From positions 68,045-132,044 of the IMG/VR virus record IMGVR_UViG_3300009184_000033: a DNA stretch of 64,000 nt. The stretch is one strand, 5' to 3'. The position numbers and the translations under genes were made by a program. Positions within the stretch are counted from its first letter, which is position 1. Each line of letters opens with the position of its first letter. Below the pieces are notes generated by a model. The model was given only the letters and a program-made list of their open reading frames with translations, was not told where the DNA came from and made no database searches. Of the stretch, positions 32,216 to 52,159 are shown piece by piece. Source of the stretch: a virus.

Positions 32216-33364
32216 CTAGCGGCAGGCACCAGAGAGGCTCGTAGTGGAGCCGCCCGGAACGTCAACTTCGACAAATGGCTCATAGCAGCCTTCGGAGTTG
32301 ACGTTACGCGTATCAGTCCACACCATGACACCACCGAGGTAGACGTTCACAGTGACATCATTGCGTCCCGAGTAGACGGAACCAGGGTAGTCATGGACAT
32401 AGACAGTGTACGTCCCACGTGCGGGAGAGTCGATATTGATATTCTCCGGACCAGTTCCCGGGATGTCATCGAGGTCGAGGATGGGATCATCCGTTGGACC
32501 ACCAGCCCCCCAGTTGAGTCCGCCCCAAGTGCAATTCGCATAGTAACAGTCAGAATCAGTTGTCAGGACGCCGCCATCATCGAGGAGGTGGAGGTCCATG
32601 TCATCGCCGGAGTATGTCCAGAACATCTCCACCCAGAGCCCGTCACCGGCTGTCGCCTCCAGGGTCGCGAGGCAGGGCTCAGAGACGAGACCGTCGTTAT
32701 CAGTGACCACCAGCTGGCCGACGTACTCGCCTGCTACGTCCGGAGTGAAACCCCGACGATTTGCGGTGCCACCAGGCATTGTGGAGGTGGCACCAGCCGG
32801 CTCAGAGATGAGAGTCCAGTCGTATGAGACGATCGATCCGTCATCGTACGAGGCGCTGCCAATCCAGTCCGCTGACTCATGGATGGCGAGGACGGACGTG
32901 GGATCGACCGAGCATACCGCAACTGGCTGGGAGAGTGGAGGCGCGGTGTCCCCAGTGTCTCCGGTGTCGACTATGACCTCCGCACCGGCTAGCAGAGGCA
33001 CAGTAAGGTTAGGACTAGCAGGATCGTTAGAAAGAATCTGAAGGTCACCGGTTGTCTCGCTCCCATCGGAGGTGTATGTGATCGTGAGCTCAGCGAAGGA
33101 ATCAGGTTCGAAAGAACCGACAATGGGCTCGAGGAGAGTGAATGTCTCACGTCCGTTGCCGATCTGCATTGCGGTCACGTTGAGGTTTGCGTCTCCGAGC
33201 GATGACATGGTGATGATCTGCGCCGAGCTCTCACCGGCTGGGACGATCCCAAAGTCGACAGGGCTGGGGTCGACCTGAATACGCGGTGCGCCATCAGTGG
33301 GTGGATCCTTGATGGAAGTGATCGTATTGTCCATGCATGCGACCGTGAGTAAGAATAACACCAT
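32216..33364 (-). CDS. Lipoprotein: Ig-like (ASH/choice-of-anchor) + PKD-like + YfaP-like domains
   Basis: Lipobox LTVAC at residue 10; VDFGIV; DTGDT linker; DMDLHL..DLDDIPGTGPENINI..GTYTVYVHDY. Confidence 0.7.
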   Translation of the reverse strand: MVLFLLTVACMDNTITSIKDPPTDGAPRIQVDPSPVDFGIVPAGESSAQIITMSSLGDANLNVTAMQIGNGRETFTLLEPIVGSFEPDSFAELTITYTSDGSETTGDLQILSNDPASPNLTVPLLAGAEVIVDTGDTGDTAPPLSQPVAVCSVDPTSVLAIHESADWIGSASYDDGSIVSYDWTLISEPAGATSTMPGGTANRRGFTPDVAGEYVGQLVVTDNDGLVSEPCLATLEATAGDGLWVEMFWTYSGDDMDLHLLDDGGVLTTDSDCYYANCTWGGLNWGAGGPTDDPILDLDDIPGTGPENINIDSPARGTYTVYVHDYPGSVYSGRNDVTVNVYLGGVMVWTDTRNVNSEGCYEPFVEVDVPGGSTTSLSGACR

Positions 33365-33425
33365 TGGGCCTCCGTTAACCTCAACAGTATGTATACTCAG
33401 ATGCTCTCAGATGTACAGAGCTACA

Positions 33426-33677
33426 TCAAGATGTGGAAACACTCATCGCTGACTGGACCTTCCCAGAATCAATCTGAGTGTCTTCCGACACCAGCTCTAG
33501 CCAGTCGGTCGGATAGGTCTCGACCCGACCGTCATTGAGCACCTCTGACCTGTTCTCCCAGTACACGCCACTGCCCTCTCCTGTGGAGACCTCGACAAGC
33601 TCGGTGCTTATGACTATCATGAAGCCACGCGGTAACAGCATGGACCAGTGGAACTTTACGAGACTACCTGGTGCCAT
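33426..33677 (-). CDS. Small KOW/SH3-like protein
   Basis: MAPGSLVKF. Confidence 0.55.
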   Translation of the reverse strand: MAPGSLVKFHWSMLLPRGFMIVISTELVEVSTGEGSGVYWENRSEVLNDGRVETYPTDWLELVSEDTQIDSGKVQSAMSVSTS

Positions 33678-33743
33678 CTCTCTTCGACCATATCCGTTCG
33701 AGAGCCCTCAGGAGCTCAAATGAGAAGTTTCCAAACATGACAG

Positions 33744-33750
33744 TAAGTAT
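33744..33750 (-). promoter_or_regulatory. ATANTTA motif 5 nt before an ATG
   Basis: ATACTTA-ctgtc-ATG (24-codon ORF 33664..33738). Confidence 0.4.
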
Positions 33751-33752
33751 GT

Positions 33753-33950
33753 TCAGTCTCCGTTTCCGAGACCACTCCACAGCGGGACTGCCAGCGTCAT
33801 CTTCTTGTGCTCGTGCGCGTGGTGCTCGATCTCCTCGATGAGCCGGATGATGTCTCCCGCATTCACGTCCAGCGAGTGGTCGATCCTGTGCCGGCACCGC
33901 TCGATCACCTTCTCAATTGGCTCCAATGTCTTCTCGCCTCCACCTGCCAT
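33753..33950 (-). CDS. Hypothetical protein
   Basis: GGAGAGG RBS. Confidence 0.55.
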   Translation of the reverse strand: MAGGGEKTLEPIEKVIERCRHRIDHSLDVNAGDIIRLIEEIEHHAHEHKKMTLAVPLWSGLGNGD

Positions 33951-34140
33951 TTCCCTCTCCGCAGAGACACTGCTCGTGAAAATCGATCACGGGTGTGAGC
34001 GCGGGCTGGTCGCTGCACCTCGCCTCGCATGCCTTCTGGAAGCTCAGTGAGTCGGAGCAGACCCAGATCAGCAGGAGAAATCCAACTGCAAGAGAAATCA
34101 TGGTCACAAACTTTTCGATCTGCTGGTCAGAAAAATTCAT
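33913..34140 (-). CDS. Small membrane protein with four Cys
   Basis: TM helix then CEARC..CLC. Confidence 0.6.
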   Translation of the reverse strand: MNFSDQQIEKFVTMISLAVGFLLLIWVCSDSLSFQKACEARCSDQPALTPVIDFHEQCLCGEGNGRWRREDIGAN

Positions 34141-34155
34141 CTACCCCTCCAGGTT

Positions 34156-34920
34156 CTACCAGTCTCCCTCGTGATTTCCATCGACAACTTTTCCACGGAC
34201 TCGCCGTCCCTTCTTGTTATAGAGGGTCACCTTCTCCTGCAGCATCTGGACCTCCCATCGATCGCTACTGACCTGCTTCAGGCTAAAGGGCCCGTAGCCA
34301 TCGATCCCGAGGAACTCATCGTGCCCATAGTGGATGTTGGCGAGCTCCTTCTTGCCAACTACATTTGCGCACCGTGTCACTTCTTCCTGCAAGCCTGCGT
34401 TGGCCCTGTGAAGCTCACTGTTCTCTTTTAGAAGTTCCCGGATACGATCGCCAGTCGCCTCTTTGAGATCGTCACATTCTTCCTTCAGAGTCCGAATGTC
34501 CTCACAGAGGGTATTGAGCTCATCGCGAGCGTCATCCCTCTCAGAGAGGGTTTGCTTCAGTGCTTCCTGGAGATAGTCCCTCTCAGCAACCACCTTCTCC
34601 GCGTAGACAGACCAGCTTCCCTGCCCAACGAATCCGGGACCACGCTCGGACTCAGGTGGGACAAGCTTCTCAAGGCGCTCGGCCTTCAGAAGGATCTCCT
34701 TCATTCGCTGGGCCTGCTCGGCGTTCTCCTTTCGCAGCTGGTCATTCTCTTTGTCGATGTCCAGTCCAGCCTGATGTGCCTCGTAGCACTCCTTCCGAAG
34801 ACTATCGATCTCATCGAGGAGGACCCTTGCCTGCTCACTGTTGAGCAGTGTACCACCGGCATTGATGTGCTCACGGATTGAATCCTCGGTCAACCAATCT
34901 TGTTCAGCACGCTGGTTCAT
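34156..34920 (-). CDS. Coiled-coil hypothetical protein
   Basis: Heptad E/K/R-rich; ATGA overlap. Confidence 0.7.
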   Translation of the reverse strand: MNQRAEQDWLTEDSIREHINAGGTLLNSEQARVLLDEIDSLRKECYEAHQAGLDIDKENDQLRKENAEQAQRMKEILLKAERLEKLVPPESERGPGFVGQGSWSVYAEKVVAERDYLQEALKQTLSERDDARDELNTLCEDIRTLKEECDDLKEATGDRIRELLKENSELHRANAGLQEEVTRCANVVGKKELANIHYGHDEFLGIDGYGPFSLKQVSSDRWEVQMLQEKVTLYNKKGRRVRGKVVDGNHEGDW

Positions 34921-35156
34921 GGGTTCTCCTTCTTCATGATGTTCTGGATCTTGCTGTCACGTTCCTGGACCAACTGTGACCAGCGTGCGGCATGCTCATC
35001 CGACCGTCGCTTGATCTCATCTGGATCTGTCGACTTGAACTCGTACTCCTTGCTCATCTCCAGGAGTCTCAGGGAGTAATCGATCTCAAGCTCAAGCACA
35101 TCGGACTTACCGGCCGAAGAGAGCGAGGCGAACTGTTCAGGTGTAAGGGCACTCAT
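34917..35156 (-). CDS. Hypothetical protein
   Basis: ATGA-coupled. Confidence 0.65.
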   Translation of the reverse strand: MSALTPEQFASLSSAGKSDVLELEIDYSLRLLEMSKEYEFKSTDPDEIKRRSDEHAARWSQLVQERDSKIQNIMKKENP

Positions 35157-35560
35157 TCTGTCTCCTTGTTGTCAATGTCTCTACACTCTGCGATGATGGC
35201 TTCTCGATTCTTCTCATTGTAGTCGAGAAGTTCCTGGACAATCGCGAGGAGATCGCCGTTTTCACCCTTTTCGAGGGTCTCATTAGCTTTATCAGCAAGG
35301 TTCTTGAAGTCTCTAATGTGCTTGTAATCAGTCATGGGTGCTCCTTCCTGCAAACCATACGGGCTGCGATTCTCGTTTACAAACCGGCGATACTTCTCAA
35401 GAGCGGGATGCGACCCGTCTCTATCGCTTGGATGTCGTGTCGCATCAATCATCTTAACGTGCCGTTCGAGGACATCCCACAGCTCGATGATCGCTTTGTC
35501 GCGATCCTGGATGTCCTCATCTCGAATGTCAGCCAGGTCGATCTCACCCCAGTTTCTCAT
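35153..35560 (-). CDS. Hypothetical protein
   Basis: ATGA-coupled. Confidence 0.65.
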   Translation of the reverse strand: MRNWGEIDLADIRDEDIQDRDKAIIELWDVLERHVKMIDATRHPSDRDGSHPALEKYRRFVNENRSPYGLQEGAPMTDYKHIRDFKNLADKANETLEKGENGDLLAIVQELLDYNEKNREAIIAECRDIDNKETE

Positions 35561-35727
35561 GCGTTCTCCTTCTCCCTGCGAAGCTCCTGAAGACTCTCCT
35601 TCAGGACGGCTGCAAACTTCTCCATCTCCTCTGGGGTCAGGCTATCGAGCTTCTCGATAATCGTGGGATCCGTGATGGGAAAGCTGGCCCCTTCGGGGAC
35701 CTCATTGTCTACGTGCTCGTTGCTCAT
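35557..35727 (-). CDS. Small hypothetical (56 aa)
   Basis: Hand-translated MSNEHVDNE..; ATGA overlaps at both ends. Confidence 0.65.
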   Translation of the reverse strand: MSNEHVDNEVPEGASFPITDPTIIEKLDSLTPEEMEKFAAVLKESLQELRREKENA

Positions 35728-35978
35728 TGATTCTCCTTGACCTTTCGCGGTGGAAGGCCGACCATCTCACGGACCTCATCCTCGTAGGGCTTCCCTTTCA
35801 GGAGACTGAAGTCGATAAGATGGCGAATCCGGTGATCAACGACAGGAATGTCTCCCTCAGGATCATCGTACTCACTGATGAAAGCAAAGATGTTGTTAGG
35901 TACTGTTCCCTTCTCAAAGATGTGCGGGTTCTTCACGTTGGCAAGATGAAGCTGAAAGATTTTGCCGCTTTCTGTCAT
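35724..35978 (-). CDS. Hypothetical protein
   Basis: ATGA-coupled. Confidence 0.65.
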   Translation of the reverse strand: MTESGKIFQLHLANVKNPHIFEKGTVPNNIFAFISEYDDPEGDIPVVDHRIRHLIDFSLLKGKPYEDEVREMVGLPPRKVKENQ

Positions 35979-36139
35979 GATTCCTTCTCCTCATTTCCGT
36001 TTTTAGCCGTATCTCTTTCCTTGTACGCTCTCTCGAGAATCGACCAGAAGTAATCTGTCATCCTCGTCGCATTATACCCCTCATCCATTCTTGCTTCGAT
36101 TTCCTCAAAGAGTTCATCTCTCGTAAAATCCCAGCTCAT
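35975..36139 (-). CDS. Small hypothetical (54 aa)
   Basis: Hand-translated MSWDFTRDE..; ATGA overlaps at both ends. Confidence 0.65.
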   Translation of the reverse strand: MSWDFTRDELFEEIEARMDEGYNATRMTDYFWSILERAYKERDTAKNGNEEKES

Positions 36140-36354
36140 TCTGTCTCCTTGTCTCTATCATAACCATCGGTGTCGTCGTTTACAAGGTCGACTTCGCGAG
36201 GTTTGAACCAAGCGATACCGACCGGCGTGTGGACTCTCAATGGGTTCGGGTTGGTCCCGACTTCAATGATGAGACCGATCTGTTCCCAGTATTTCTCGGC
36301 ATAATCCTTGTCGTATTCCGGTCTGCGGATCCTGACGAGATCACCGGGTTTCAC
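36136..36354 (-). CDS. Small KOW/SH3-like protein
   Basis: MKPGDLVRIRR (GTG start). Confidence 0.7.
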   Translation of the reverse strand: MKPGDLVRIRRPEYDKDYAEKYWEQIGLIIEVGTNPNPLRVHTPVGIAWFKPREVDLVNDDTDGYDRDKETE

Positions 36355-36550
36355 TGATCACCTCCAGATTCTCCTCCGCCCAGGGCTGCATCTCACCGTC
36401 GATCAGGACCCACCAGTCGCACCAACTGTTGATGGGATGGCCGTCCTCGAGTGTGACGGGTTCGACGATCACTCCGGTGTGACCGAGGATATCGTCAGGG
36501 AGTTTCTCTTCGGATGAGTGGACAATCCTAACGAGGTCACCGGGTTTCAT
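36341..36550 (-). CDS. Small KOW/SH3-like protein
   Basis: MKPGDLVRIVH; start reassigned. Confidence 0.7.
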   Translation of the reverse strand: MKPGDLVRIVHSSEEKLPDDILGHTGVIVEPVTLEDGHPINSWCDWWVLIDGEMQPWAEENLEVISETR

Positions 36551-36701
36551 CAAACTCCGACTCATCATCGAATCCTGCAAGACTGGCAATCTCACGCCAG
36601 GCGGCGGTGATCTCTGGTGGGTCCCGGTAGTCGGTTGCTGGATTGTAGTGCCACTCGTAGAGGAGCCTGAGGGTGTCGATGCTGATTGTGACCTCGTTCA
36701 T
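36537..36701 (-). CDS. Small hypothetical (54 aa)
   Basis: Hand-translated MNEVTISIDT..; coupled. Confidence 0.55.
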   Translation of the reverse strand: MNEVTISIDTLRLLYEWHYNPATDYRDPPEITAAWREIASLAGFDDESEFDETR

Positions 36702-36862
36702 TCTTCCTCTTCAGGGCGGCGATCGGGATTGTTTCGGTACCACTCCTCCCGCATCCGCATGTTTTCCTCATGCGTGTACGCCGTGTACCATGGTGGGCCG
36801 ATGTCTGGACACTTGCACTGGCTGTGTAAGAATCTGCAGTCATCGCAGTGGTGGATGCTCAT
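36698..36862 (-). CDS. Small Cys-rich hypothetical (54 aa)
   Basis: Hand-translated MSIHHCDDCRFLHSQCKC..; GGAG RBS. Confidence 0.55.
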   Translation of the reverse strand: MSIHHCDDCRFLHSQCKCPDIGPPWYTAYTHEENMRMREEWYRNNPDRRPEEEE

Positions 36863-36876
36863 GATTCACTCCATTC

Positions 36877-37098
36877 TCAAGGTAGTTGGATGTCCCATTC
36901 TCGCTGAAGATCTTTCAACACGCTTACTCTCCACTCACATACCCGGCAGGGATTGTCATGCCTACACTCGTAGGTGAGCTCACCTGGGTGGGAGACGAGG
37001 CACGGAGCATTTCGAACGTGGTTGAGGAGGTCTTCGATGATCTCCTTCAGTCTTTCGTTCTCGAATGGTAGGTACTGGAGTTTCAGGCCTTCGTGCAT
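36877..37098 (-). CDS. Small hypothetical, Cys motifs
   Basis: CRHDNPCRVC; start uncertain. Confidence 0.5.
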   Translation of the reverse strand: MHEGLKLQYLPFENERLKEIIEDLLNHVRNAPCLVSHPGELTYECRHDNPCRVCEWRVSVLKDLQREWDIQLP

Positions 37099-38217: not shown

Positions 38218-38224
38218 TTAAGCC

Positions 38225-40186: not shown

Positions 40187-41680
40187 TCAGTACCGGTACT
40201 GATTCGACTTGTAGGGACCTTCGACGTCGACTCCAATGTAGCTTGCCTGACTCTCGGTAAGCTTCGTGAGCTTTGCACCGAACTTATCGAGGTGAAGTCG
40301 GGCAACCATCTCATCGAGGTGCTTCGGAAGCGTGACCACGCTCACATTGAGATCAGGAAGCTTGATGCGATTATGACCGTAGAGCTCAGAGAACTTGTGG
40401 AGGTCGATCTGGGCGAGCACCTGATTCGTGAAACTGTTGCTCATCACAAGGCTCGGGTGACCGGTCGCGCATCCAAGATTCACGAGTCGACCCTCGGCGA
40501 GGATCAGGATCTTTCGACCCGTGTCGTCAAACTCCCACTCGTGGACGCCTGGCTTCACTTCGGTCTTAGTAACCAGCCGATCACGGCGCATGCGCTCGAG
40601 GCCTGCCATGTCGATCTCATTGTCGAAGTGGCCAATGTTACAGACGATGGCTCCGTCCTTCATCTGGGACATGTGCTCGGCGTTAATGATGTTCTTGTTC
40701 CCAGTTGCGGTCACAAAGATGTCAGTGTGCGGGAGCGCATCCTCGACCGTAGTGACCTCGAGGCCCATCATACATGCCTGGAGCGCACAGATCGGGTCAA
40801 TCTCAGTGACTGCAACTCTGGCATACTGGCCTCGGAGGCTATCTACTGAACCCTTACCCACGTCACCGTAGCCACAGACCAGGACCCGCTTGCCTGAGAC
40901 CAGCACGTCCGTAGCACGATTGATGGCATCGACGAGAGAGTGGCGGCAACCATAGAGGTTGTCGAACTTCGACTTGGTCACCGAATCGTTGACGTTGATC
41001 GCCGGGAACAAGAGGGTGCCGGCATCGCGCATCTCGTAGAGCCGGTGCACGCCAGTAGTAGTCTCTTCAGAGACACCCTTGATGTTCGCCGCCAGAGGAG
41101 TCCAGAAGTTGTTACCCTTCTCCCTGCGGACATCATGGATGAGCTGGAAGATGACGGCTTCCTCCTCCGAAGATGCAGTAGCTAGGTCTGGCAGCGTATC
41201 ATTCTTCTCGTGCTGGTAGCCGAGATGAACTAGAAGGGTCGCATCACCGCCATCATCGAGGAGGAGCGTGGGACCAGAACCATCAGGCCAGGCGAGCGCC
41301 TGAAGGGTGCACCACCAGTACTCCTCGAGGGTCTCACCAGCCCATGCAAAGACCCGGGTGCCGGTGGAAGCAATAGCTGATGCCGCGTGGTCCTGCGTCG
41401 AGAAGATGTTACAGCTCACCCACTGCACATCTGCGCCGAGGTCTTTAAGGGTCTCGATCAGCACAGCCGTCTGGATAGTCATGTGGAGTGAACCCATGAT
41501 CCGGGCGCCCTGCAGGGGCTTCTCATCCTTGAAGCGATTGCGCACGGACATGAGCCCGGGCATCTCCTTCTGGGCGAGCTCAATCTCCTTCCGACCCCAC
41601 GTCGTCGTCTTGTCAGAATTGTCCTTGACTCTGCTCTGCATGCCCGAGAAAAGCTCGAGGCCAGTATTCATGAATTTCAT
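40187..41680 (-). CDS. ahcY: S-adenosylhomocysteine hydrolase
   Basis: [61 protein letters not shown]; start taken at TAATG overlap. Confidence 0.96.
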
Positions 41681-42846
41681 TAGATCTCCAGGTAACGCTT
41701 GATTGTTGTAACCATGTCCAACTTCTCCCAAGTGAATTCGCCTCGCCCAAAGTGGCCATACGCGGCGGTGCGCTGGTATCCCGGCTTGCGCAGGTCCAGG
41801 CGCTCAATGATTCCCTTCGGCTTCAGCGGGAAGACGTCCTTGACGCAGCGAATGATCTGATCCTCGCTTACCCTGTTGGTGCCGAAAGTATCGACCATCA
41901 CGCTCACCGGTTCTGCGACGCCAATCGCATAGGAGAGCTGGACCAGCGCTCGAGAGCAGGCTCCGGAAGCGACGAGGTTCTTTGCGATGTACCGACCCAT
42001 GTAAGCCGCCGAACGGTCAACCTTGCTGGGATCCTTGCCCGAGAAGGCGCCACCGCCGTGGGCACCGTGGCCACCGTAGGTGTCGACGATGATCTTGCGA
42101 CCCGTGAGACCCGAGTCTCCCATCGGTCCGCCGATCTCAAACTTGCCCGTGGGGTTGACATAGAACTTCGTCTTGTTGTCGATCATGTCAGAGGGCAGGT
42201 ACCGCTTGATGAGACCAGAGACGACCTGCTCATAGATCTCGCCGTGGGCACGGGGCTCGTGCTGGGTAGACAGGACGACGGTATCGATGCGTGAGATCCT
42301 CGAGTCTCGGTACTCCACCGTCACCTGGGCCTTGCTGTCCGGACGGACCCAGGACCAGTCGCTGTCGGTCTTGCGGAGCTTCGAGAGGTTCCGCATCAGG
42401 TCGTGGCTCCACTGGATCGACGCCGGCATGAGCTCTGGCGTCTCAAGGACTGCGTAGCCGAACATCATGCCCTGGTCGCCAGCACCCATCTCAGAGAACA
42501 GGCCAGAGCCCTCATCGACGCCCTGCGCAATATCGGGAGACTGCTCCTCGAGGGCGACCATGACGGCGCAGGTGTTGCCGTCGAATCCCTTGTCAGAGTG
42601 GTTGAATCCGATGTCGTTGATCGTCTTCCTCACCACCTTTGCGATGTCGACCTTGACTTCAGACGGCACGGTGATCTCTCCAGCTACAACGACCAAGCCG
42701 GTCTTCACGAGGGTCTCGCAGGCCACCCTCGAGTTAGGATACTGCTGGAGGTAAGAATCCAACACAGCGTCAGAGATCTGGTCACAGATCTTATCTGGGT
42801 GCCCCTCTGATACGGACTCAGATGTAAACAGGTAGTTCTTCGGCAT
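41680..42846 (-). CDS. metK: S-adenosylmethionine synthetase
   Basis: [54 protein letters not shown]. Confidence 0.97.
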
Positions 42847-42847
42847 G

Positions 42848-43279
42848 TTACCACTCCTCCCCAAGACCGACCCAGTCCTTGTACTTCTCTTCTCCGCCGC
42901 GGGTCTTCCAGTCAGAGTCGATTGTGAGCTTCGAGCTGATTCCACCTCGAGGATTGAACACCATCACGACCCGGAGCCGGTCTGGCTCGTACGCTGCCAT
43001 GAGATCGTCGTAGACGACATTGATCAGCCGCTCATAGGAGATGATCTTCTCGCGGAACTGGTGGAGATAGTACTTCAGAGACTTGAGCTCCACCACCTTG
43101 GAATTCGGATAGATGGTGATGAAGAGGTCTGCGAAATCTGGCTGGTCCTTGACACCGAGAAACGTTACCTCGGGTGACTTGATCTTGACCTCGTAGCCCT
43201 TGCTCGAGGGATTGGGAATTGCCTTCAGGATAGAAGGGTCGCTCCAGACTCTTGACAATTGTCCTCCTTGATTTGACAC
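42848..43279 (-). CDS. QueF-like T-fold protein lacking the catalytic Cys
   Basis: [35 protein letters not shown]; protein contains no Cys. Confidence 0.85.
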
Positions 43280-43976: not shown

Positions 43977-44465
43977 ATGGATACACCAGCAGAGATAGTA
44001 AATCACGAAATTGCAACACCGGCGATTGGGCCTGAGGCACCGCCAGAAATGATTGCTGCACAGCCAGCGGTCGAAACTACCGAAATAGTCGAAGCGCCTG
44101 TTACGACTGGAGCGAAAGTTTATCCAAGCCTGTATGACACTATTCCGACAACAATTGCGGCGATCGCGATCGGTATTGGAATCATCGGCGGAATCCAGTG
44201 GACGGTAAGGAAGATCTTCTCTTCGGAAAAGATGGAGCACAAGGCGCTCACGCAGTTCGTAACTGCGATGTTCGCCCTTATTGTTGGCGTCTGGATAGCA
44301 GACAAGCTCATTGCAGGTCCCTCTACCGAACTGCTTCTTCCTGAAGAAAGCACACAACTGCTTACGTTCATCAAGGACATCACGCTCATGGTGTTCAGCT
44401 ACTACTTTGGCACTAAGGCACAGGTTCCTTCTGACGTTGTCGAGAGCGAGGTGATCGATGGCTGA
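43977..44465 (+). CDS. Multi-pass membrane protein, holin-like
   Basis: Three hydrophobic helices, VFSYYFGT C-terminal motif. Confidence 0.55.
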   Translation: MDTPAEIVNHEIATPAIGPEAPPEMIAAQPAVETTEIVEAPVTTGAKVYPSLYDTIPTTIAAIAIGIGIIGGIQWTVRKIFSSEKMEHKALTQFVTAMFALIVGVWIADKLIAGPSTELLLPEESTQLLTFIKDITLMVFSYYFGTKAQVPSDVVESEVIDG

Positions 44466-44928
44466 TCCATTAGCACAGATCCTGGAAGCATCAGGCGGTG
44501 GAAATGTCTGGGCAGTGCTTGGACTTGCGGTCTCCGGTGGTCTAGGCAAGTACGCCTGGGACTTCTACAAGAAGAAGGCAGACCTCAATTTCAAGGCCAA
44601 CGACAATGTCCGTAAGGACGTCAAGGAAGAGAAGCTCCTCGATCGCAAGGAACGGAACGAGTTCAAAGACGACCTGAAGGAGCGCGTCGCCGCTCTTGAA
44701 GTGAAGCTCGAGGCGGCTGTGAAGGCAAAGGAGGACCTCCTCGAGCAGGTTGGTGAGCTTCGCGCAAAGCTGGCCAAGATTGAGACAAAGCTCGAGATCC
44801 TCCTTGCAGGTGGAAAGGTAGCACCAGAGCCACCAGCTCCAGAGCCTCCGCCAAAGAAGACTGCTGCAAAGGCAAATCCGGCATCAAAGCCAGCGGCAAA
44901 GGCCGCAAAGCCAAAGAAGAATGCCTGA
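44458..44928 (+). CDS. N-terminal TM + coiled-coil protein
   Basis: WAVLGLAVSGGLG then long coiled coil, P/K/A tail. Confidence 0.65.
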   Translation: MADPLAQILEASGGGNVWAVLGLAVSGGLGKYAWDFYKKKADLNFKANDNVRKDVKEEKLLDRKERNEFKDDLKERVAALEVKLEAAVKAKEDLLEQVGELRAKLAKIETKLEILLAGGKVAPEPPAPEPPPKKTAAKANPASKPAAKAAKPKKNA

Positions 44929-45559
44929 CTGCACAATCAAGTCTGGGGAAATTGTCAGCCTCGAAGACCTGAGGCTGAATGACCCCAACTGCACAATCGA
45001 GGCTGGGGTCATAATCAGGCCACCTTTAGCTCCAGAAGTTGAGTCTGTCGATAAGAAGGCAGAAACAAAGCCTGCCAAAGTCAAGAAACAGGCAGAAATC
45101 AAAAAGACAGAAGCAAAGCCTGAAGAAGTTGTTGCAAATGTAGAGGCGCCGAAAGTGGCGCCACAGAAGAAAGTGGTCACCAAAGAGGTGATCGAAGTGC
45201 CGCAGCCTGTCATCAACAATGGGCTGTCTTCAAGTGAAATTGCTGCCGGTGCGGCGGTGCTTGGTGTTGCCGCCATAGGTGCCGCAGCGGCAACTTCTGC
45301 CGCAGGAGGAATTTCATCGATACAAGCCAAGATCGCATCGATGTTCGGCTCTAAGGGCGCAATTGCTGGCGCGGCAGCGGTAACCGCTGGTACGATCGTG
45401 GCAGTCAAGGCACTGGAATCAAAGATGGGCAAGCTTGAGCAGGATATGTCAAAAATGAAAGAGGAGGTCGGTGGTGCCGCCTCCTCTATCGATAAGATTG
45501 ACGAGCTACTTGACCGGCTCAGCAGAGACGGTAACGACAAACTCGACCCGCCTGTTTAG
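44921..45559 (+). CDS. Membrane protein with K/E linker, Ala/Gly TM and coiled coil
   Basis: Coupled to previous gene; overlaps convergent 45506..49288 by 54 nt. Confidence 0.6.
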   Translation: MPDCTIKSGEIVSLEDLRLNDPNCTIEAGVIIRPPLAPEVESVDKKAETKPAKVKKQAEIKKTEAKPEEVVANVEAPKVAPQKKVVTKEVIEVPQPVINNGLSSSEIAAGAAVLGVAAIGAAAATSAAGGISSIQAKIASMFGSKGAIAGAAAVTAGTIVAVKALESKMGKLEQDMSKMKEEVGGAASSIDKIDELLDRLSRDGNDKLDPPV

Positions 45560-48500
45560 GGCCTTGCCAGCTGGCGTTCCAGAGGAATCGATCGGAGACT
45601 CATCACCCTTGCCCTCGATCGAGATCCTCTCGGTCGAGATTCCTTTTCCAGCGAGATAGTCGGCGGCAACCTTTGCCCTCTCGTATGAGAGCTCGTCAGG
45701 ATGCTTGTACTCAATCTCAGAGGAATCAGCATAACCAACTACCTTGACTCCAAATCCAGGTCGAGAGTTCAAGATAACCCAAACGCCATCGAGTGTTGCT
45801 TGTCCCCTGGCGTTCAGCTTGGAATCTCCAGCCTTGAAACCTATGCCGATCTCTTGCTTCGGAGCCGTGACCGCGTCTGGCGCAGCTGGAACAACTATCA
45901 CTATCGGCTGCTCGTACACGGTGACTGACTTGCAGTCGCATGCTGGAGCTGGTGGGGGTATGACCAGAGCTGGGGCTGGAATTACTTCAGGTTTATCATC
46001 AGAGCCAAAGGTCAACTGAGCTGATAGTTGCCAGTCGGGGTCTCCTGGCTGGCGGATGATTCCCTTGCTTCCCGCGACTCCCACGGAGAAGTTTCCTATT
46101 GTCCAGTCGAGTGATGTCCCCACAAAGAGCGAGGAAACTGGTCTCTCACCGATGTTGTAGTAGGCTTGCGTATCGACGCCAACCGTGAAGTTACCAAGAC
46201 CGTAGGCAGCTAGAGCGTTAAGGTAAGGACCGTCTCCGAGCTCGTAACCCTCGAGATCAATTTCTGGGTAAACAAGGTAACCACCACCAGCTGTAAAGCT
46301 TAGATCCCCGACCTGTCCCTCGGCACCGGCCTCGACCTGCATCACTGTGTTCGGGTGCGCGACCCCGAGCCCAACGCCAGTGGGAACAACGACCGCGAGA
46401 TCGCCGTAAGCTCCCCAGCCGTCCTCTCCGAATGCCTTTGTATATCCACGAGCTCCACCCCAGGCGTCTCCGATTCTTGGTACACCATCCTGCATAATAG
46501 ATCCCGGGAGACCCACATCGAAGGAGAAGTGATCGAAAGTGTACCTATTTGTCGTCCAGCCCCAGAAGGTGTCACCGATGACGACCGTCTCAGTGCCGTC
46601 TGGATTCACATAGGAGAGCGGGTCAGTAACGATACCGCCGACCACTGCCGATTCCTCACCCTTGAATACCGAGGCTCCCCTCGGAGGAAGAGGAACCACG
46701 CTCATCTCTGGGACCTCACCGCCTGAAGCGCCCATCAATAGTGGAGTACCCAGGATAGCAGCCATGAGACCGAGGCCACGTCGCCTCACCGAGGCGAGGA
46801 GGGCAGCTCCAAGCAAGATGATTCCACCTGATGGTCCACCACCTGTCGTTGAGCATCCGCCAGGAACGTACTTACCCACAGCTGGCTTGACTGGATCTTC
46901 TACGGGGTCTGTGTCGGTATCAACTGCTGTGTCGATGCCTGAATCAATCCCCGAGTCTATTCCGGAATCGATCCCTGAGTCGATGGCAGTATCGACTGCT
47001 GTGTCACCAGTATCTACTGGTCTGTCGTCCACTGGGTCGCATGCGTCTCCGATTCCGTCACCGTCAATATCCGTCTGATCATTAGGCTCACCGAAGCAGT
47101 TGTCGCTGTCGTCGGCGTATGTGTCACCGTCAGCATCAGAGTCACAGAAATCTCCAATACCGTCGTGATCGAAGTCTAGCTGCTCGTCGTTCGGATAGTC
47201 AGGGCAGTTGTCGGCAAGTCCGCAGACTCCGTCAGAATCGACATCGTTCGATGGATCTCCGAGGCAAGTGTCCGATCCATCGCAGACTCCATCACCATCG
47301 GCGTCGTTGAACGGATCGTATGGGCATGGGTCTATGTCAGCGCACTTGTCGTCAGAGTCGACGTCATCTTCCGGATCAAGGGGGCATGCGTCGCATCCGT
47401 CAGGGACAGTGTCGAGGTCAGAGTCGACAAGGTCATCAGAGCCTGCGCAGATGTCGATATCTCCACAGACTCCGTCCGCGTCCGAATCATTCTCAGCATC
47501 AGCTGGGCAGATGTCGACGTCTCCACAGTTTCCGTCCTCATCAGCATCGTTCATGGGATCAAGCGGGCAAGTGTCTGCCGATTCGCAGAGTCCATCGCTG
47601 TCACGGTCATCGAGCGCGTCCGATGGACAGGCGTCGACGTCTCCGCACACCCCATCATCATCTGCATCGTTCAGCTCATCGAGCGGACAGGCATCACAGT
47701 CATCAGAAAGACCATCAGAGTCTACGTCCGCGACGTCGTCGAAGCCAGGGCAGATGTCTGCAGAGTCGCAGGAGCCGTCTCCATCAGAGTCATCTGCTGA
47801 GTCGGTCGGGCAGGTGTCGCATCCGTTCGGAACAGAGTCGCCGTCGACGTCAAGCAGGTCATCGGCGCCTGGGCAAATGTCGTCCGAATCACAAGAACCG
47901 TCAGCGTCAGAGTCATCAAGGGCGTCGAATGGACAGGTGTCACAACCATCTGGGACAAAGTCCAAGTCGGTGTCCATCAGGTCATCAGACCCAGGACAGG
48001 CCTCGTTGTTTCCGCAGACAGTGTCCTCATCCTCATCGTCGAGAGGATCGTAGATGCAGATATCACATCCGTCTGGAGTTCCATCTGAGTCAGAGTCTAC
48101 GATATCGCTAAACCCTGGGCATGTGTCGAAGTCACCGCAGATTCCATCTAGGTCTTCGTCATCGAGAGGATCATTAGGGCAAACATCGCATCCGTCAGGG
48201 GTAAGATCTGAATCTGCGTCAGCAAGGTCATCGTATCCAGGGCAAATGTCGGTATCGCCACAGATACCATCAGCATCCGCATCGTTTTCAGGATCGGTCG
48301 GGCAAGTGTCCTCAGTGTCAGGTATGCCGTCAGAATCTGCATCTGGAATCACGGGTGCCTCGGCACATTCCGTCGCAGCGGTGATCGCAGAGTCATCAAG
48401 TGCATAGACAACCCTGAATGTCTCAGACTGTCCAGGTATCATATCACCTATGCGGACTGCAAGAGAGATTGCCTGATCTGCGGTGGTTGTGGATCCAACT

Positions 48501-49288
48501 GATGAGTTTAGTCCTGAGCCGTTCCAGATATTGGAACCGTCTGTGTTGCTGAATCCGCCGTGCGTGACCTTTGCGCGTGAGTCAGAGGCAAGAAGGTAGA
48601 GGTCAGACCCATCGCCTCCCGTGGCCTTCACCTCAGCGAGATCAGTTGAGGCATTTGGCTGGGAGATGATGGTGTTGGTCGTGCTGTAACCGTAACCAGT
48701 CATCACAGCGTTGTCAGGATCTACGTTCCTGAACCAGTACACGTCCGACAGGGTGCTCGATCCGTTGTTGGTGAGTGTGACGGTCATGACGATGTAGACG
48801 CCGTCATTCACAACGCCGTACTGCGTCTCAATACCAAGGTCTCCCCTGTTTCCGGTCCATGTCGCGGCCCCGCCGAGATTCCCACAGATGTCGACTTCAC
48901 AGGCAGGGTCACCGAGGCTGCCTACAATGTTCTGGCTTCCGTTGAAGTTTGTGTAGGAAGTGCCGTTGACCTCGACTCCCCATCCCTCGAGAGGCGAACC
49001 GGGAGAGAAGAAGTCACCGTAGAATGATGCCCATCCGTTGGCTTGCGGGTTCGCGACAAAACCCATCTGGCCCGTGTTGGAGCGATAGTGCCAGCCAGCA
49101 GGATACCCTCCCTCGCCAAAGGCACCTTCACTTCCAAGACCAAGCTCAACGTAGGAGTTGCGGATGAAGGCTGCGGACCCAGGATCGCTTACCTCACAGA
49201 ATCCGGAGGCGTGTGCTACTCTGGGAGCTGAAGCGAACGCTGCTAAAAGAACAGGGAATAGAATTTGATTTAGACATAGTTTGCGCAT
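45506..49288 (-). CDS. Secreted TSP3-repeat / MYXO-CTERM-like / beta-barrel / OmpA fusion protein
   Basis: Signal peptide (..VAHA); ~22 DxDxD TSP3-type repeats; DTG/DSGI linker; GGCSTTGGG..IILLGAALLASVRRR; C-terminal VVGYADS..LSYERA..GKGDESP..NRRVEF. Confidence 0.85.
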   Translation of the reverse strand: MRKLCLNQILFPVLLAAFASAPRVAHASGFCEVSDPGSAAFIRNSYVELGLGSEGAFGEGGYPAGWHYRSNTGQMGFVANPQANGWASFYGDFFSPGSPLEGWGVEVNGTSYTNFNGSQNIVGSLGDPACEVDICGNLGGAATWTGNRGDLGIETQYGVVNDGVYIVMTVTLTNNGSSTLSDVYWFRNVDPDNAVMTGYGYSTTNTIISQPNASTDLAEVKATGGDGSDLYLLASDSRAKVTHGGFSNTDGSNIWNGSGLNSSVGSTTTADQAISLAVRIGDMIPGQSETFRVVYALDDSAITAATECAEAPVIPDADSDGIPDTEDTCPTDPENDADADGICGDTDICPGYDDLADADSDLTPDGCDVCPNDPLDDEDLDGICGDFDTCPGFSDIVDSDSDGTPDGCDICIYDPLDDEDEDTVCGNNEACPGSDDLMDTDLDFVPDGCDTCPFDALDDSDADGSCDSDDICPGADDLLDVDGDSVPNGCDTCPTDSADDSDGDGSCDSADICPGFDDVADVDSDGLSDDCDACPLDELNDADDDGVCGDVDACPSDALDDRDSDGLCESADTCPLDPMNDADEDGNCGDVDICPADAENDSDADGVCGDIDICAGSDDLVDSDLDTVPDGCDACPLDPEDDVDSDDKCADIDPCPYDPFNDADGDGVCDGSDTCLGDPSNDVDSDGVCGLADNCPDYPNDEQLDFDHDGIGDFCDSDADGDTYADDSDNCFGEPNDQTDIDGDGIGDACDPVDDRPVDTGDTAVDTAIDSGIDSGIDSGIDSGIDTAVDTDTDPVEDPVKPAVGKYVPGGCSTTGGGPSGGIILLGAALLASVRRRGLGLMAAILGTPLLMGASGGEVPEMSVVPLPPRGASVFKGEESAVVGGIVTDPLSYVNPDGTETVVIGDTFWGWTTNRYTFDHFSFDVGLPGSIMQDGVPRIGDAWGGARGYTKAFGEDGWGAYGDLAVVVPTGVGLGVAHPNTVMQVEAGAEGQVGDLSFTAGGGYLVYPEIDLEGYELGDGPYLNALAAYGLGNFTVGVDTQAYYNIGERPVSSLFVGTSLDWTIGNFSVGVAGSKGIIRQPGDPDWQLSAQLTFGSDDKPEVIPAPALVIPPPAPACDCKSVTVYEQPIVIVVPAAPDAVTAPKQEIGIGFKAGDSKLNARGQATLDGVWVILNSRPGFGVKVVGYADSSEIEYKHPDELSYERAKVAADYLAGKGISTERISIEGKGDESPIDSSGTPAGKALNRRVEFVVTVSAEPVK

Positions 49289-49293
49289 ACCTG

Positions 49294-49300
49294 TAATTAT
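49294..49300 (-). promoter_or_regulatory. ATANTTA motif 5 nt before ATG
   Basis: ATAATTA-caggt-ATG, no Shine-Dalgarno. Confidence 0.45.
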
Positions 49301-49399
49301 GCGCTGAGATTTTACATAATTCTTCCAAAATTTACTTTCTTAGATTGGCCATAACCAGAACACGACTAATGAACGCTTCTGGAAATTTTTATAATCTCT

Positions 49400-49669
49400 C
49401 TATTTGATCTCGTCGACTGATTGATCCATCTCTTGATTCCAATTTGTCCTGAGCTGGATGAGCGGATTGAAGCTCGCCTTCTTCCTCTCGAGGACTAGGG
49501 CGGACTGAGGCTTCTGGAGGATTCCCTCGATCTCAAGTTCCTCGAAATCGATCTCGGTCTTCTGCTTGTAGACGACCTTTCCATCCTCGTCCCCGTCTTC
49601 GCCCGCGTTGGCGTGGCCAGGTGCAAAAAGAAGTGCGACAAAGATTGCGATTCTGATCATTCTACTCAT
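49400..49669 (-). CDS. cglF: CglF/GltF-like adventurous gliding motility protein
   Basis: Signal peptide (..HANA) then VVYKQKTEIDFEELEIEGILQKPQSALVLERKKASFNPLIQLRTNW, matching the myxobacterial CglF pattern as I recall it; AGGAG RBS. Confidence 0.7.
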   Translation of the reverse strand: MSRMIRIAIFVALLFAPGHANAGEDGDEDGKVVYKQKTEIDFEELEIEGILQKPQSALVLERKKASFNPLIQLRTNWNQEMDQSVDEIK

Positions 49670-49677
49670 GATGGCTC

Positions 49678-49959
49678 CTATGCATTCTGGATTGTCTGGA
49701 GGAAACACTCGTCCACTCCAAGGATCTGGCCGCGATATAGCACGTCATACAGCGGCTCTCTGGCATCTTCCTCGAACTGATGGCACTCGATTATGGTACA
49801 GATGTCGCCCAGCTGTATCTCTAGTTCATCGCCCTCCTCATCGAAGAGAGTTATCGATATTGCGTCGTGATAAGAGTCTGGAGCAATAAATTTGCAAAGA
49901 GAACCAGGGAACATGTCAGTACTATATCTTCTTGCGACCGCCTTTTCAGGCTGGCCCAT
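49678..49959 (-). CDS. Small KOW/SH3-like protein
   Basis: PGSLCKF..LGDICTII..YDVLY; start uncertain. Confidence 0.5.
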   Translation of the reverse strand: MGQPEKAVARRYSTDMFPGSLCKFIAPDSYHDAISITLFDEEGDELEIQLGDICTIIECHQFEEDAREPLYDVLYRGQILGVDECFLQTIQNA

Positions 49960-50001
49960 CTGCCACAGCGTCATTGAAGATCCAACGCGCAGCAAATCTT
50001 G

Positions 50002-51930
50002 TCAGTACCCGTCCTGCTCTTGAGCATGCTCCAGCGCCGACTCAAGATCTTCCGCAATCCGATTTGCATCCTGCTCGTCGATGTGCTCGCAGTCCCTGAT
50101 TATCGAGATTGCTTCCCTGGTGAGAGGGATGATCATCGCGGTGGTGTAGTTGGGTCTCTCACGGGCGCTGTCTATCATGTCCATCAGCTCAAAGAGCGCG
50201 CCAAGCGCCACTGAGTCCTCTGGACAGCCGGCGTCCTCTAGATCCATCTCCGCCATCTCAAGGGCGGCAAGTAGCTCGGATGTCTGCATCTGCTCGAGGT
50301 CCCTTCCTGCGAACATCTCTCCCGCCTCGGTGAGGCTCTTGCCGCGAACTCTTGATTCGACCACGCCGCGCGGATCCAAGATCGCGAGGACGCGCCCAGT
50401 GGTGATCTTGCCACGGCTCCAGTTGTCGAAGATCTTCTTGAAGGTCTGCCTGGAGTGCGTGACGCTCTCTTCCCAGATGTCACGGTTTTCTGGTGATAGA
50501 GTTTGCTCGAGCTCGTCGAACTTGGACATCACTTTGTGCCTGAGCTTATTGAAAGCTCTTCCGGCCGGAGTCTGTATGTCACGTGCTAGATCAAAGTTAG
50601 TGTCCATGCTTGCATGCCTGTTCTGGGCGAGCTTGTAGTTCTCCCAGATCGCCTTGTACTCTGGTGTCATGTGAAGCGTGTTGAGGAACCTCTGATAGTC
50701 CTCTATCACCTCGTCGTCGCCAGCATTAATGAGCCGCTGCGCCTGGTTGGGTCCAAAGATCTCCTTGAAGATTCCGATCAGACCTGGGATGACAGACCAT
50801 GGAGAGTTGAGAAATGAGTCAATTATTCCGTACTCGCGGAGCAATTTGCCTCGAACAGTTGCCATGACCGCAGACTCACCAATGTCAAGGGTCTTTGGAT
50901 AGCCCTTCTGACCCGGCTTCTTTCTTGGTAAGCCCTTCTTCCTGCGCTGGCGGATATTGTGCCAGAGACCCTTTGGCTTCGCTTCGTTCAGTGGCTCAAG
51001 CCCAGCAAGCTTGTGCCAGCGCTCGAGGATGGGATCTTTGTCGTATCTACGACCTGAATTCTCTTGGCTCTTTGTGGTCTCTTCTTCAGCTGGCTCGAAT
51101 GACTTGTTTGGTGTAGAAGGATTTGCCTCATTGTGAGCAAACTCACCTGGACCATAAATGTGCAGTTCTGCTGGAATCTGCTTTGCCATGTTCTTTTCTA
51201 CGTCATTGGTGTTCTTACTGAGATCATCATAGAAGTGAACTTCCTCTGGCTTTTGCGCGGCTTTGTCAACAAAGTGATCTTTTATCTTCTTGCCCTTGTT
51301 TCCGCCTGAGACGCCGAAGACTCCAGAGTTTGGCTTCGCACCCTGCTTCTCCAAGAACTCTTCCATGTCTTCAGCGTTCGTGGCGGTCAGCTTGTTGCCG
51401 TGAATGTCCTCCACCTGTCCACTGGCGGTCCTGGCAGTTACAACTGCCGTCTTGGAGCCAGCCGCGTTCGCCTTCTTGAGCTTATCAATGGTGGACGAGA
51501 TTGGCTTGGTGGTATCCAGGTTTGTGCTGCTCGAGGGAGTGTAGTCTACCAACACCTCGTCTTGTCCAGAGGCTCCAGTTGGAACTCCGAATCCAGTCGC
51601 AAACTGTCTATCTGATGGTATCTGCGACTGAATCTTGGCAAGAGCAGCAGAATTCACGTAGGCGGCATATGCTCCGTCTTTTTCGGAGATCGGTACGATG
51701 CCCGGATCAAGCAGCGCATTCGTGCTGACGCCGAGGCTCTTGAGCCAACCCTCGACCTCCTGCTTAGACTTGTGGACTGGCTTTCCGTCTCGGTACAACA
51801 TTACGGCATTCGCATTTGTAGTGACGCCAAGCGTGTCGTCAAAATCGAACAAGTGAACTTGCTTCTCTGGAGGAGCGTCACCTGGTACTGCATCTTCGAA
51901 CAATAGATCGACGAGTTTCATCCGCTTCAT
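50002..51930 (-). CDS. Leader-bearing multi-segment protein with HAD phosphatase domain
   Basis: MKLVDLLFE; HLFDFDDTL, VVTAR, HFYDD; internal ILERWHKLAGL-EPLNEA, LLREY, LTEA. Confidence 0.7.
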   Translation of the reverse strand: MKRMKLVDLLFEDAVPGDAPPEKQVHLFDFDDTLGVTTNANAVMLYRDGKPVHKSKQEVEGWLKSLGVSTNALLDPGIVPISEKDGAYAAYVNSAALAKIQSQIPSDRQFATGFGVPTGASGQDEVLVDYTPSSSTNLDTTKPISSTIDKLKKANAAGSKTAVVTARTASGQVEDIHGNKLTATNAEDMEEFLEKQGAKPNSGVFGVSGGNKGKKIKDHFVDKAAQKPEEVHFYDDLSKNTNDVEKNMAKQIPAELHIYGPGEFAHNEANPSTPNKSFEPAEEETTKSQENSGRRYDKDPILERWHKLAGLEPLNEAKPKGLWHNIRQRRKKGLPRKKPGQKGYPKTLDIGESAVMATVRGKLLREYGIIDSFLNSPWSVIPGLIGIFKEIFGPNQAQRLINAGDDEVIEDYQRFLNTLHMTPEYKAIWENYKLAQNRHASMDTNFDLARDIQTPAGRAFNKLRHKVMSKFDELEQTLSPENRDIWEESVTHSRQTFKKIFDNWSRGKITTGRVLAILDPRGVVESRVRGKSLTEAGEMFAGRDLEQMQTSELLAALEMAEMDLEDAGCPEDSVALGALFELMDMIDSARERPNYTTAMIIPLTREAISIIRDCEHIDEQDANRIAEDLESALEHAQEQDGY

Positions 51931-52133
51931 CTTGTTGTACCTACCCTTCCAATTTTTCCATCTGAGAGTATCTTCTTGATATCCTTACCAAGATCGAGAA
52001 CGCCCTGCTTGAACGGCTCGATGAATACATATGCTGCCGCCACGATGGCGATGACGATCACGCTGATGAGGAGCATGTACTCGACAGTGGACTGTCCCTC
52101 GTCATCTGCAATGAGCTGCTTCAGTAGTTCCAT
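51927..52133 (-). CDS. flp: Flp/Fap (type IVb/Tad) prepilin
   Basis: MELLKQLIADDEG|QSTVEYMLLISVIVIAIVAAAY: G/Q cleavage site, E+5 Y+6, hydrophobic helix; GAGG RBS. Confidence 0.88.
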   Translation of the reverse strand: MELLKQLIADDEGQSTVEYMLLISVIVIAIVAAAYVFIEPFKQGVLDLGKDIKKILSDGKIGRVGTTR

Positions 52134-52152
52134 GTGATACCTCAGATACTTA

Positions 52153-52159
52153 TAACTAT
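52153..52159 (-). promoter_or_regulatory. ATANTTA motif
   Basis: 19 nt upstream of pilin ATG. Confidence 0.55.

Follow-up and report, generated by a model that had tools for sequence, protein, structure and literature searches.

A polyprotein adhesin, a gliding-motor subunit, a Flp-type prepilin and a lipoprotein by which a T4-like phage probably reshapes the surface of its Myxococcota-like host

Phages can alter the surface of infected cells by means of single small envelope proteins, T5 Llp and lambda Lom/Bor among them, which have roles in exclusion or serum resistance. Here, we describe a 64,000-nucleotide stretch of viral DNA (further, the window; positions 68,045 to 132,044 of IMG/VR record IMGVR_UViG_3300009184_000033, that is, the final 64 kb of a single contig of 132,044 bp with 52.7% GC), in which a span of 20 kb encodes four exported envelope proteins: a large adhesin-anchor polyprotein, a homologue of the gliding-motility protein GltF/CglF, a Flp-type prepilin, and a lipoprotein. 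Several of the systems to which these proteins can be compared have been described in Myxococcota. TraA consists of a signal peptide, a lectin-type head, a Cys-rich stalk, and a MYXO-CTERM tag, TraB consists of a large N-terminal domain and OmpA, and the two genes overlap (PMC3325183); TraA has been described as a polymorphic receptor (PMC11980579). In MXAN_5598, an “atypical” internal MYXO-CTERM tag is followed by a barrel and OmpA, and this protein has been compared with a union of TraA and TraB (Guo, Haft and Wall, 2025, PMC11980579). Processing at internal MYXO-CTERM tags has been proposed, and MYXO-CTERM and myxosortase have been reported to be universal in, and specific to, Myxococcota (PMC11980579). 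As for the gliding machine, in an AlphaFold model a β-strand of GltF pairs with GltG, and its terminal helix docks into GltC (PMC11761067).

An earlier note, made from the window alone, had claimed four envelope genes between positions 32216 and 52159. All four are indeed there, on the minus strand, and taken together they suggest that the phage probably reshapes the surface of the infected cell. The contig, recorded in IMG/VR as a virus with an estimated completeness of 39%, is coded mostly on the minus strand throughout, and genes for a tail sheath, a major head protein of the gp23 type, a portal protein, and the large terminase TerL are found in its other half. The nearest relatives of the capsid protein come from an uncultured huge phage (48% identity) and the Flavobacterium phage “immuto” (43%). 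Given these genes and the IMG/VR record, the contig is by its gene content part of the genome of a large T4-like myovirus rather than cellular DNA. According to a crude screen, a hydrophobic N-terminus is found in only two further open reading frames (ORFs) of the contig, and the recognised exported proteins cluster in the 32–52 kb span, where the four envelope genes are interspersed with S-adenosylmethionine-cycle, ATPase, and unknown genes and do not form one operon.

The largest of the four genes (45506..49288, minus strand, as are all its parts) encodes a protein of 1260 amino acids, for which the sequence and domain searches yield a TraA+TraB type of architecture within one gene. A signal peptide is followed by a 283-residue head (residues 28–310; 48359..49207), a stalk of about 450 residues formed by Cys- and Asp-rich thrombospondin type 3 (TSP3) repeats (residues 311–760; 47009..48358), an Asp/Thr-rich linker, and a MYXO-CTERM tag (46775..46873) comprising GGCSTTGGG, a hydrophobic helix, and an RRR run. 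Beyond the arginines the frame continues, with no intervening stop codon, into a second signal-peptide-like hydrophobic stretch (46715..46774), a predicted outer-membrane β-barrel of about 240 residues (residues 859–1095; 46004..46714), a Pro-rich linker, and an OmpA-like peptidoglycan-binding domain (45524..45844; Pfam OmpA, 6.9e-13). The internal tag passes both NCBIfam cut-offs, with 22.7 bits for TIGR03901.2 (cut-off 20) and 18 bits for TIGR03382 (cut-off 15.85). The repeats match Pfam TSP_3 and, at 5e-11, NF047638 (MtsC), and these are their only matches; the Cys-rich repeats TIGR04201 are not listed at E <= 1.

The AlphaFold2 model of the head (predicted local distance difference test, pLDDT, 91.8) has a galactose-mutarotase-like β-supersandwich fold according to both Foldseek (E-value 1e-7) and VIA, the latter giving Z-scores of 18.5–13 against the N-domains of GH15, GH94, and GH116 enzymes and against aldose epimerases; the modelled fold suggests that the head is probably glycan-binding. 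The top Foldseek matches of the barrel are the outer-membrane barrels FapF, a COG4313 channel, and NanC, and the predicted fold is thus of the 12-strand type. An exhaustive HMMER search among 1.8 billion representatives yielded only the barrel's own family, one match to a 3272-amino acid repeat protein being taken as spurious. A language-model search for look-alikes, treated as a source of leads only, returned Phenol_MetA_deg and a cluster named “OmpA family”, which is most frequent in Myxococcota.

The same fused form is seen in 13 clusters (P0001–P0013; 90%-identity clusters from other samples) with 64–98% identity, and given this recurrence the fusion is no artefact of assembly. In a sister phage-like contig, L011, the two parts are encoded separately, with a gene for a 934-amino acid head–repeat–MYXO-CTERM protein whose stop codon overlaps the ATG of a gene for a 380-amino acid barrel–OmpA protein that has its own signal peptide. 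Hence, the second hydrophobic stretch of the 1260-amino acid protein matches, and corresponds to, the signal peptide of the partner. The expected topology would be a helical hairpin, in which the tag helix runs from the outside in, the arginine loop is cytoplasmic, and the signal segment runs from the inside out. Among the 13 fused homologues the head is the most conserved domain, with mean pairwise identity of 82% compared to 70% for the barrel.

The head itself is widespread, occurring in Myxococcota proteins with a terminal MYXO-CTERM tag, in many Bacteroidota proteins with tails of the type IX secretion system (T9SS), and in two huge phages. In one of the latter, the uncultured huge phage LR756502 (L005:5839–8535), an 898-amino acid secreted protein combines the same head (40.6% identity) with Ig-like repeats and a C-terminus resembling the T9SS type B sorting domain, so that the adhesin idea is there fitted to a Bacteroidota host. 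As the same head is joined to T9SS tails in huge phages and to MYXO-CTERM here, the sorting tag appears to follow the host.

The gene next to the adhesin gene (49400..49669, minus strand; an alternative upstream start is the GTG at 49708) encodes an 89-amino acid exported protein, which the earlier note had called CglF-like and which is a genuine member of the GltF/CglF family. It matches NF033764 over model positions 7–88 of 88 (8.3e-16, 57.8 bits), below the equivalog cut-off of 90, and this family has no matches in 14 control genomes. Homologues with 57–59% identity are found in five Myxococcota-like metagenome-assembled genomes (MAGs). In one of them, G305, the orthologue (54% identity end to end, E-value 6e-33) lies in a glt cluster (locus L094) that runs from two outer-membrane barrels of Myxococcota type through GltC, a long TPR protein, GltE, CglF, and GltG to CglE. 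This glt-cluster protein scores 53.9 bits on NF033764, much like the phage copy, and thus the low score reflects distance from Myxococcus rather than a different family. The phage–MAG alignment is best conserved in the C-terminal part, where, by position, the strand and the helix binding GltG and GltC would fall. In the tree, the metagenomic copies, which are unlabelled and were taken as phage ones, make up a single group, which neighbours the MAG copies and is remote from Archangium CglF (support 97/91 for phage and MAG copies apart from Archangium CglF; the alignment is short and the support moderate).

The third gene (51927..52133, minus strand) encodes a 68-amino acid Flp-type prepilin, which proved to be intact: its leader ends in Gly and is followed by QSTVEY and a hydrophobic helix. 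The pattern of leader Gly, xxxxEY, and helix, read from the sequence, is invariant across 15 phage and MAG copies, and the first 24 residues of the mature protein are nearly invariant between the phage and the MAG copies. Matches to hidden Markov models are weak (Class_IIIsignal, 0.005; DUF4244, 0.004; Flp1_like, 0.004, for a cellular copy); there is no Pfam Flp_Fap match, and nothing was found in PDB by sequence or profile, hence no solved pilin. Several close relatives are named “Flp pilus assembly pilin” by JGI. The phage protein is 59–74% identical to the products of orphan flp genes of Myxococcota MAGs, and copies also occur on contigs of 266 kb and 310 kb. No tad genes were found on the phage contig; the candidate host has them, with two CpaB proteins over the cut-off in each of five MAGs. 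In MAG loci L038–L059, a sigma-54 promoter (TGGCAC-N5-TTGC) lies 24–69 nt upstream of flp in 18 out of 22 cellular genes, compared to none of five phage copies, and this promoter contrast suggests that the phage Flp has been freed from the host sigma-54 control.

The fourth gene (32216..33364, minus strand) encodes a 382-amino acid putative envelope lipoprotein, in which profile matches place, after the lipobox Cys10, a choice-of-anchor-D/HYDIN-type Ig domain, a PKD domain, and a C-terminal β-rich domain (Pfam K319L-like_PKD, 1.2e-8; HYDIN_VesB_CFA65-like_Ig, 1.6e-5; NF012200, 1.3e-7). The signal here has only nine residues and no basic residue. The tentative assignment as a lipoprotein draws on the lipobox Cys, conserved in four phage orthologues, and on the canonical signal peptidase II (SPII) signal of the orthologue in the related contig L006. 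Full-length homologues with 50–55% identity are present in MAGs G304 and G303. Separately, in two MAGs a choice-of-anchor-D protein is encoded after the glt cluster (L094:11781–12872 and G303:C342:83599–83958); these proteins share with the phage lipoprotein only the Ig-like domain (27–30% identity).

Two of these genes had been thought to lie behind a late-type motif. The motif (G/C)ATA[ACT]TTA has 15 copies on the coding strand of the 132-kb contig, and 11 of them sit 5–32 nt before true ORF starts, the genes so preceded including those for the sheath, the portal, a 1005-amino acid fibre-like protein, YeaH (5 nt before the start), and the adhesin. On the minus strand of the window, copies are found at 6556, 15075, 23225, 28845, 33750, 43962, 49300, and 57814. 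We regard the motif as a candidate late promoter in this phage clade. The adhesin gene is directly behind a copy, ATAATTA at 49294..49300 on the minus strand, 5 nt before the ATG. The copy nearest upstream of the lipoprotein gene is about 380 nt away, across two small ORFs, and the Flp upstream sequence TATAAGTAT does not fit the motif. Thus, since the motif precedes structural genes and the adhesin gene, the latter is the only one of the four for which a late-type promoter is supported.

In related viral contigs, these genes are again found in each other's company. Among six IMG/VR viral contigs found with GltF, GltF and Flp are directly adjacent in five, and the lipoprotein lies within a few kb of them in four. 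Contigs L033 and L034 hold all four genes and the gene for a 642-amino acid protein within about 10 kb, and L006 has the adhesin together with the lipoprotein. Close metagenome clusters number 547 for Flp and 506 for GltF, and the same contig sizes recur in both match lists.

As for the host, the Myxococcota-like assignment is well supported, as Flp, GltF, and lipoprotein homologues occur in the same MAGs as MYXO-CTERM tags, and we consider it very likely, from these sequence comparisons, that the phage infects this freshwater MAG lineage. A scan with Flp, covering one genome per GTDB species, yielded relatives in 42 loci, all in MAGs, several of them titled Deltaproteobacteria or Myxococcota and others plainly misnamed, e.g., “Klebsiella pneumoniae” for lake MAGs. 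No phage genes were seen around the cellular Flp loci in MAGs, and the cellular flp occupies a conserved chromosomal place between genes for an aldehyde dehydrogenase and a metallophosphoesterase. Five MAGs of 3.8–8.4 Mb have 22–53 MYXO-CTERM matches each, compared to 0 in 14 controls. In nucleotide comparisons, these MAGs are matched with 64–90% identity by the MetK, AhcY, GltF, Flp, and lipoprotein genes of the phage. A search of Flp against 301 evenly drawn Myxococcota genomes gave no match, which for a 68-amino acid query is uninformative. We also observed that MAGs titled “Klebsiella pneumoniae” or “Enterobacterales” (L041, L042, L046–L049, L051, and others) belong with the Myxococcota-like MAGs: two were checked, and G304 has 53 and G306 22 MYXO-CTERM matches, each along with a GltF homologue, and hence the deposited names of these two are wrong.

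Taking these data together, we propose that a linker of the gliding motor, a subunit of the Tad-type pilus, and an adhesin new to the cell, placed under phage control, keep or raise contact and adhesion late in infection, a reading of the sequences that we consider about evenly balanced between right and wrong. All four proteins must be handled by the host machinery: the host Sec pathway, prepilin peptidase, Tad platform, myxosortase, type II secretion system, and β-barrel assembly machinery would process them. GltF and Flp would be assembly-competent mimics, incorporated as functional components into the Glt machine and the Tad-type pilus, respectively, and the lipoprotein would be a diverged copy of an envelope lipoprotein of the host lineage. 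The adhesin polyprotein, probably expressed late, would give the cell something that the host lineage appears to be without. Its N-terminal half, with the sugar-binding-type head and the calcium-binding TSP3 stalk, would be cut by myxosortase at the internal MYXO-CTERM tag, lipidated, and bound to the surface, and the C-terminal half would re-enter the periplasm via the second signal segment, insert into the outer membrane as a barrel, and be tied to the cell wall by OmpA. Late in infection, the infected cell would thereby keep its contact with, or adhere more strongly to, adjacent cells or surfaces. The earlier note had considered that infected cells may become stickier or change in motility, which would spread progeny through a swarm or exclude rivals.

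Several observations weigh against this proposal. The AlphaFold2 model of the barrel, with 12–14 long antiparallel strands, is of low confidence (pLDDT 59). The four genes do not form one transcription unit, and when five related GltF-bearing IMG/VR fragments were searched whole, the adhesin gene was found in only one. The GC content of the phage is 53% compared to 57–73% at nine candidate host MAG loci; comparison of the 20-kb span with 30 MAGs gave gene homologies only, with no CRISPR-spacer-like match. The head was not found in 30 candidate host-lineage MAGs, and since the same query finds Archangium at 3.6e-63, the adhesin seems to be cargo of the phage lineage rather than a copy of a host gene. 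The contig being approximately 39% complete, helper genes may sit elsewhere. Finally, the machines that such intact mimics enter could just as well be saturated or jammed by them.

The last point leads to superinfection exclusion by receptor masking or machine overload, an outcome nearly as likely as the pro-adhesion one. Here, the phage would use as its receptor a glycan on the cell surface, the Tad-type pilus, or the Glt complex, the phage subunits would overload or poison these machines, and the adhesin or the lipoprotein would cover the receptor, so that infected cells and debris stop adsorbing phages, their own progeny included. Such a role, which we regard as possible though short of probable, would fit the apparent expression of the phage Flp outside host sigma-54 control, the lack of assembly genes on the approximately 39%-complete contig, where searches for a prepilin peptidase, a CPBP/myxosortase-type protease, and a T2SSE ATPase gave nothing, the precedent of receptor-blocking phage outer-membrane proteins and lipoproteins (T5 Llp, lambda Lom/Bor), and the conservation of the head, as expected for a fixed glycan ligand. 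It agrees less well with the authentic, not crippled, appearance of Flp and GltF, which keep the cleavage site, Glu5, and the GltF C-terminal part, and with the apparently late timing of the adhesin gene, as genes for exclusion are frequently early ones. That the genes are mere passengers, i.e., host DNA that was acquired not long ago and plays no part in infection, is improbable. Three of the four have 50–74% identical homologues in the candidate host lineage; however, there are hundreds of diverged yet intact copies, the phage GltF forms a single clade, Flp is 79–92% identical across phage contigs whose neighbouring genes are 52–80% identical, the composition of the span is phage-like (52–57% GC, against 57–73% in the MAG loci), and the regulation has changed with the loss of the sigma-54 promoter. 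An artefact, be it a chimeric assembly or the host flank of a prophage, is scarcely credible: although the last 4 kb of the contig have 63–65% GC, this end encodes a DUF2201-type gene present also in the related contig L007, genes on both sides of the span are shared with other viral contigs, and the same genes occur in independent IMG/VR, JGI, and ENA contigs.

The large gene could also be a true TraA/TraB pair, providing kin-specific adhesion and outer-membrane exchange and linked to the adjacent CglF, a protein transferred by TraAB. The earlier note had called it a TraAB-like fusion, and the description is apt for the architecture, from the head, Cys-rich stalk, and MYXO-CTERM tag to the barrel and OmpA. 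The TraA features of a signal peptide and a MYXO-CTERM tag are both present, the tag being internal rather than C-terminal, as are the TraB features of a C-terminal OmpA and, in L011, a partner gene that overlaps as in traAB (PMC3325183) and here is fused. Moreover, the barrel of the Archangium gephyra homologue P0035 matches TraB positions 5–295 at 2.6e-22, and the adhesin gene adjoins the CglF-like gene in the window. Orthology, on the other hand, does not hold for the head and is not established for the barrel. The NCBIfam TraA models NF033759 and TIGR04566, which score E = 0 and 3.9e-112 on the TraA located in A. gephyra, do not match the phage head at E <= 1, BLASTP against that TraA gives an E-value of 0.38, the fold is a supersandwich and not PA14, and the repeats are TSP3 and not TIGR04201. 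The phage barrel has no match to the NCBIfam TraB model NF033763, and hhalign against the alignment of Archangium TraB N-domains yields a P-value of 7.6e-4 and a probability of only 25% over 216 collinear columns. The head being the most conserved domain is the opposite of the pattern in the polymorphic TraA, and TraA-like kin recognition is not supported. The suggestion that CglF stands beside the adhesin gene in L006 and L007 is rejected as well, the small genes upstream of the homologous adhesin gene there being not CglF-like, and the partner of GltF in relatives is Flp. The TraA/TraB-pair explanation is thus most improbable, and the functional link that had been drawn between TraAB exchange and CglF is not carried over, as orthology of the large gene to TraA/TraB is not supported.

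Several neighbouring features complete the description of the window. Three small genes on the plus strand (43977..45559), convergent on the adhesin gene, encode proteins of 162, 156, and 212 amino acids of membrane or coiled-coil type with marginal family matches only; L006 keeps them beside its adhesin gene with 53–83% identity. The gene for the 642-amino acid protein (50002..51930, minus strand), with a weak HAD-like N-terminus, has an ATG overlapping the Flp stop codon (ATGA), and the C-terminal half of its product is conserved between the Flp and adhesin genes in L033 and L034. A short motif, ERW(S/H)KLAGL, is common to this protein and an 841-amino acid one (29688–32213). A block of QueF-like, MetK, and AhcY genes lies at 40187–43279, the MetK and AhcY genes having 76% and about 70% DNA identity, respectively, to the genes of candidate host MAGs, and complete phage genes for PrkA, SpoVR, and YeaH (DUF444) lie at 18784–23213. 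At 60000–64000 the GC content rises to 63–65%, the segment at about 61.1–62.8 kb is ORF-poor, and the contig terminates inside the DUF2201/VWA-type gene shared with L007; this end was considered as a host flank and rejected, as the DUF2201 gene is of phage type.

In a further step, a widespread giant freshwater phage clade, with its own Glt linker, a Tad subunit freed from sigma-54 control, and a myxosortase-displayed adhesin, would steer infected social, gliding bacteria to stick to, or remain near, their uninfected kin. A virus would then be directing how bacteria behave as multicellular groups; this reading of the sequences is tentative and rather unlikely. Phage envelope proteins altering the host surface are known; apparently new is the combination of gliding-motor and Tad subunits with a myxosortase-sorted adhesin-anchor polyprotein, and in the literature searched we found no description of phage-borne GltF, Flp, or MYXO-CTERM adhesins. 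The genes supply a testable host lineage, the freshwater Myxococcota MAGs (some of them misnamed), for a large uncultured giant-phage group. They are also natural variants that can be used to probe the coupling of the outer-membrane and periplasmic Glt parts by GltF, the processing of internal MYXO-CTERM tags, and the roles of the Tad pilus in non-model myxobacteria. The same head with a T9SS tail in Bacteroidota phages suggests that phages may display adhesins via whichever sorting tag the host reads.

Comparison with known systems shows both what is shared and what is particular to this locus. Like T5 Llp and lambda Lom/Bor, the proteins described here are phage-made, exported, and, as we expect, inserted into the envelope by host pathways with an altered cell surface as the result; those, however, are small single proteins, whereas here we see motor and pilus subunits and a sorted polyprotein of 1260 amino acids. 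The phage GltF resembles the GltF that serves in Agl-Glt gliding, and the paralogous NfsF, in being small and exported, matching the family model at full length, and keeping the C-terminal part, but unlike cellular gltF its gene lies outside any glt cluster, usually beside flp, and its score is below the curated equivalog cut-off, as is that of the host-lineage gltF. With the Flp/Fap pilins of Tad (type IVc) pili the phage protein shares the length of 66–68 amino acids, the short leader ending in Gly, xxxxEY with Glu5, and the hydrophobic helix, and Tad genes (CpaB) are present in the host-lineage genomes; it differs in having no Pfam Flp_Fap or solved-pilin match, no tad genes on its contig, and no sigma-54 promoter.

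The polyprotein resembles TraA/TraB of M. xanthus in the succession of signal peptide, lectin-type head, Cys-rich stalk, and MYXO-CTERM tag, with a partner of large N-domain and OmpA, and the two genes of L011 overlap like traA and traB. It differs in the head (supersandwich instead of PA14, conserved instead of polymorphic), in the repeats (TSP3 instead of TIGR04201), in the fusion of both parts in one phage-borne ORF, and in the unproven homology of its barrel to the TraB N-domain. The head proteins of huge phages (LR756502 and P0075) and of Bacteroidota have an approximately 40% identical N-terminal head on large secreted repeat proteins, but end in T9SS (CHU_C/Por) domains rather than in MYXO-CTERM, barrel, and OmpA. 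In Archangium gephyra, P0035 combines a head 43–46% identical to that of the phage, an internal MYXO-CTERM tag, and a barrel in one ORF; it is without OmpA, and its barrel is clearly TraB-like, while that of the phage is not. This genome has at least three loci (L010, encoding P0035, L013, and L015) with an internal MYXO-CTERM tag followed by an in-frame TraB-like barrel, and thus the fused adhesin-anchor design is recurrent in cells. The closest described counterpart, by analogy of architecture as described, is MXAN_5598, in which a single ORF likewise comprises an adhesin region, a MYXO-CTERM tag in internal position, an outer-membrane barrel, and OmpA; MXAN_5598 and P0035 are cellular, whereas the adhesin described here is borne by a phage behind a late-type motif.

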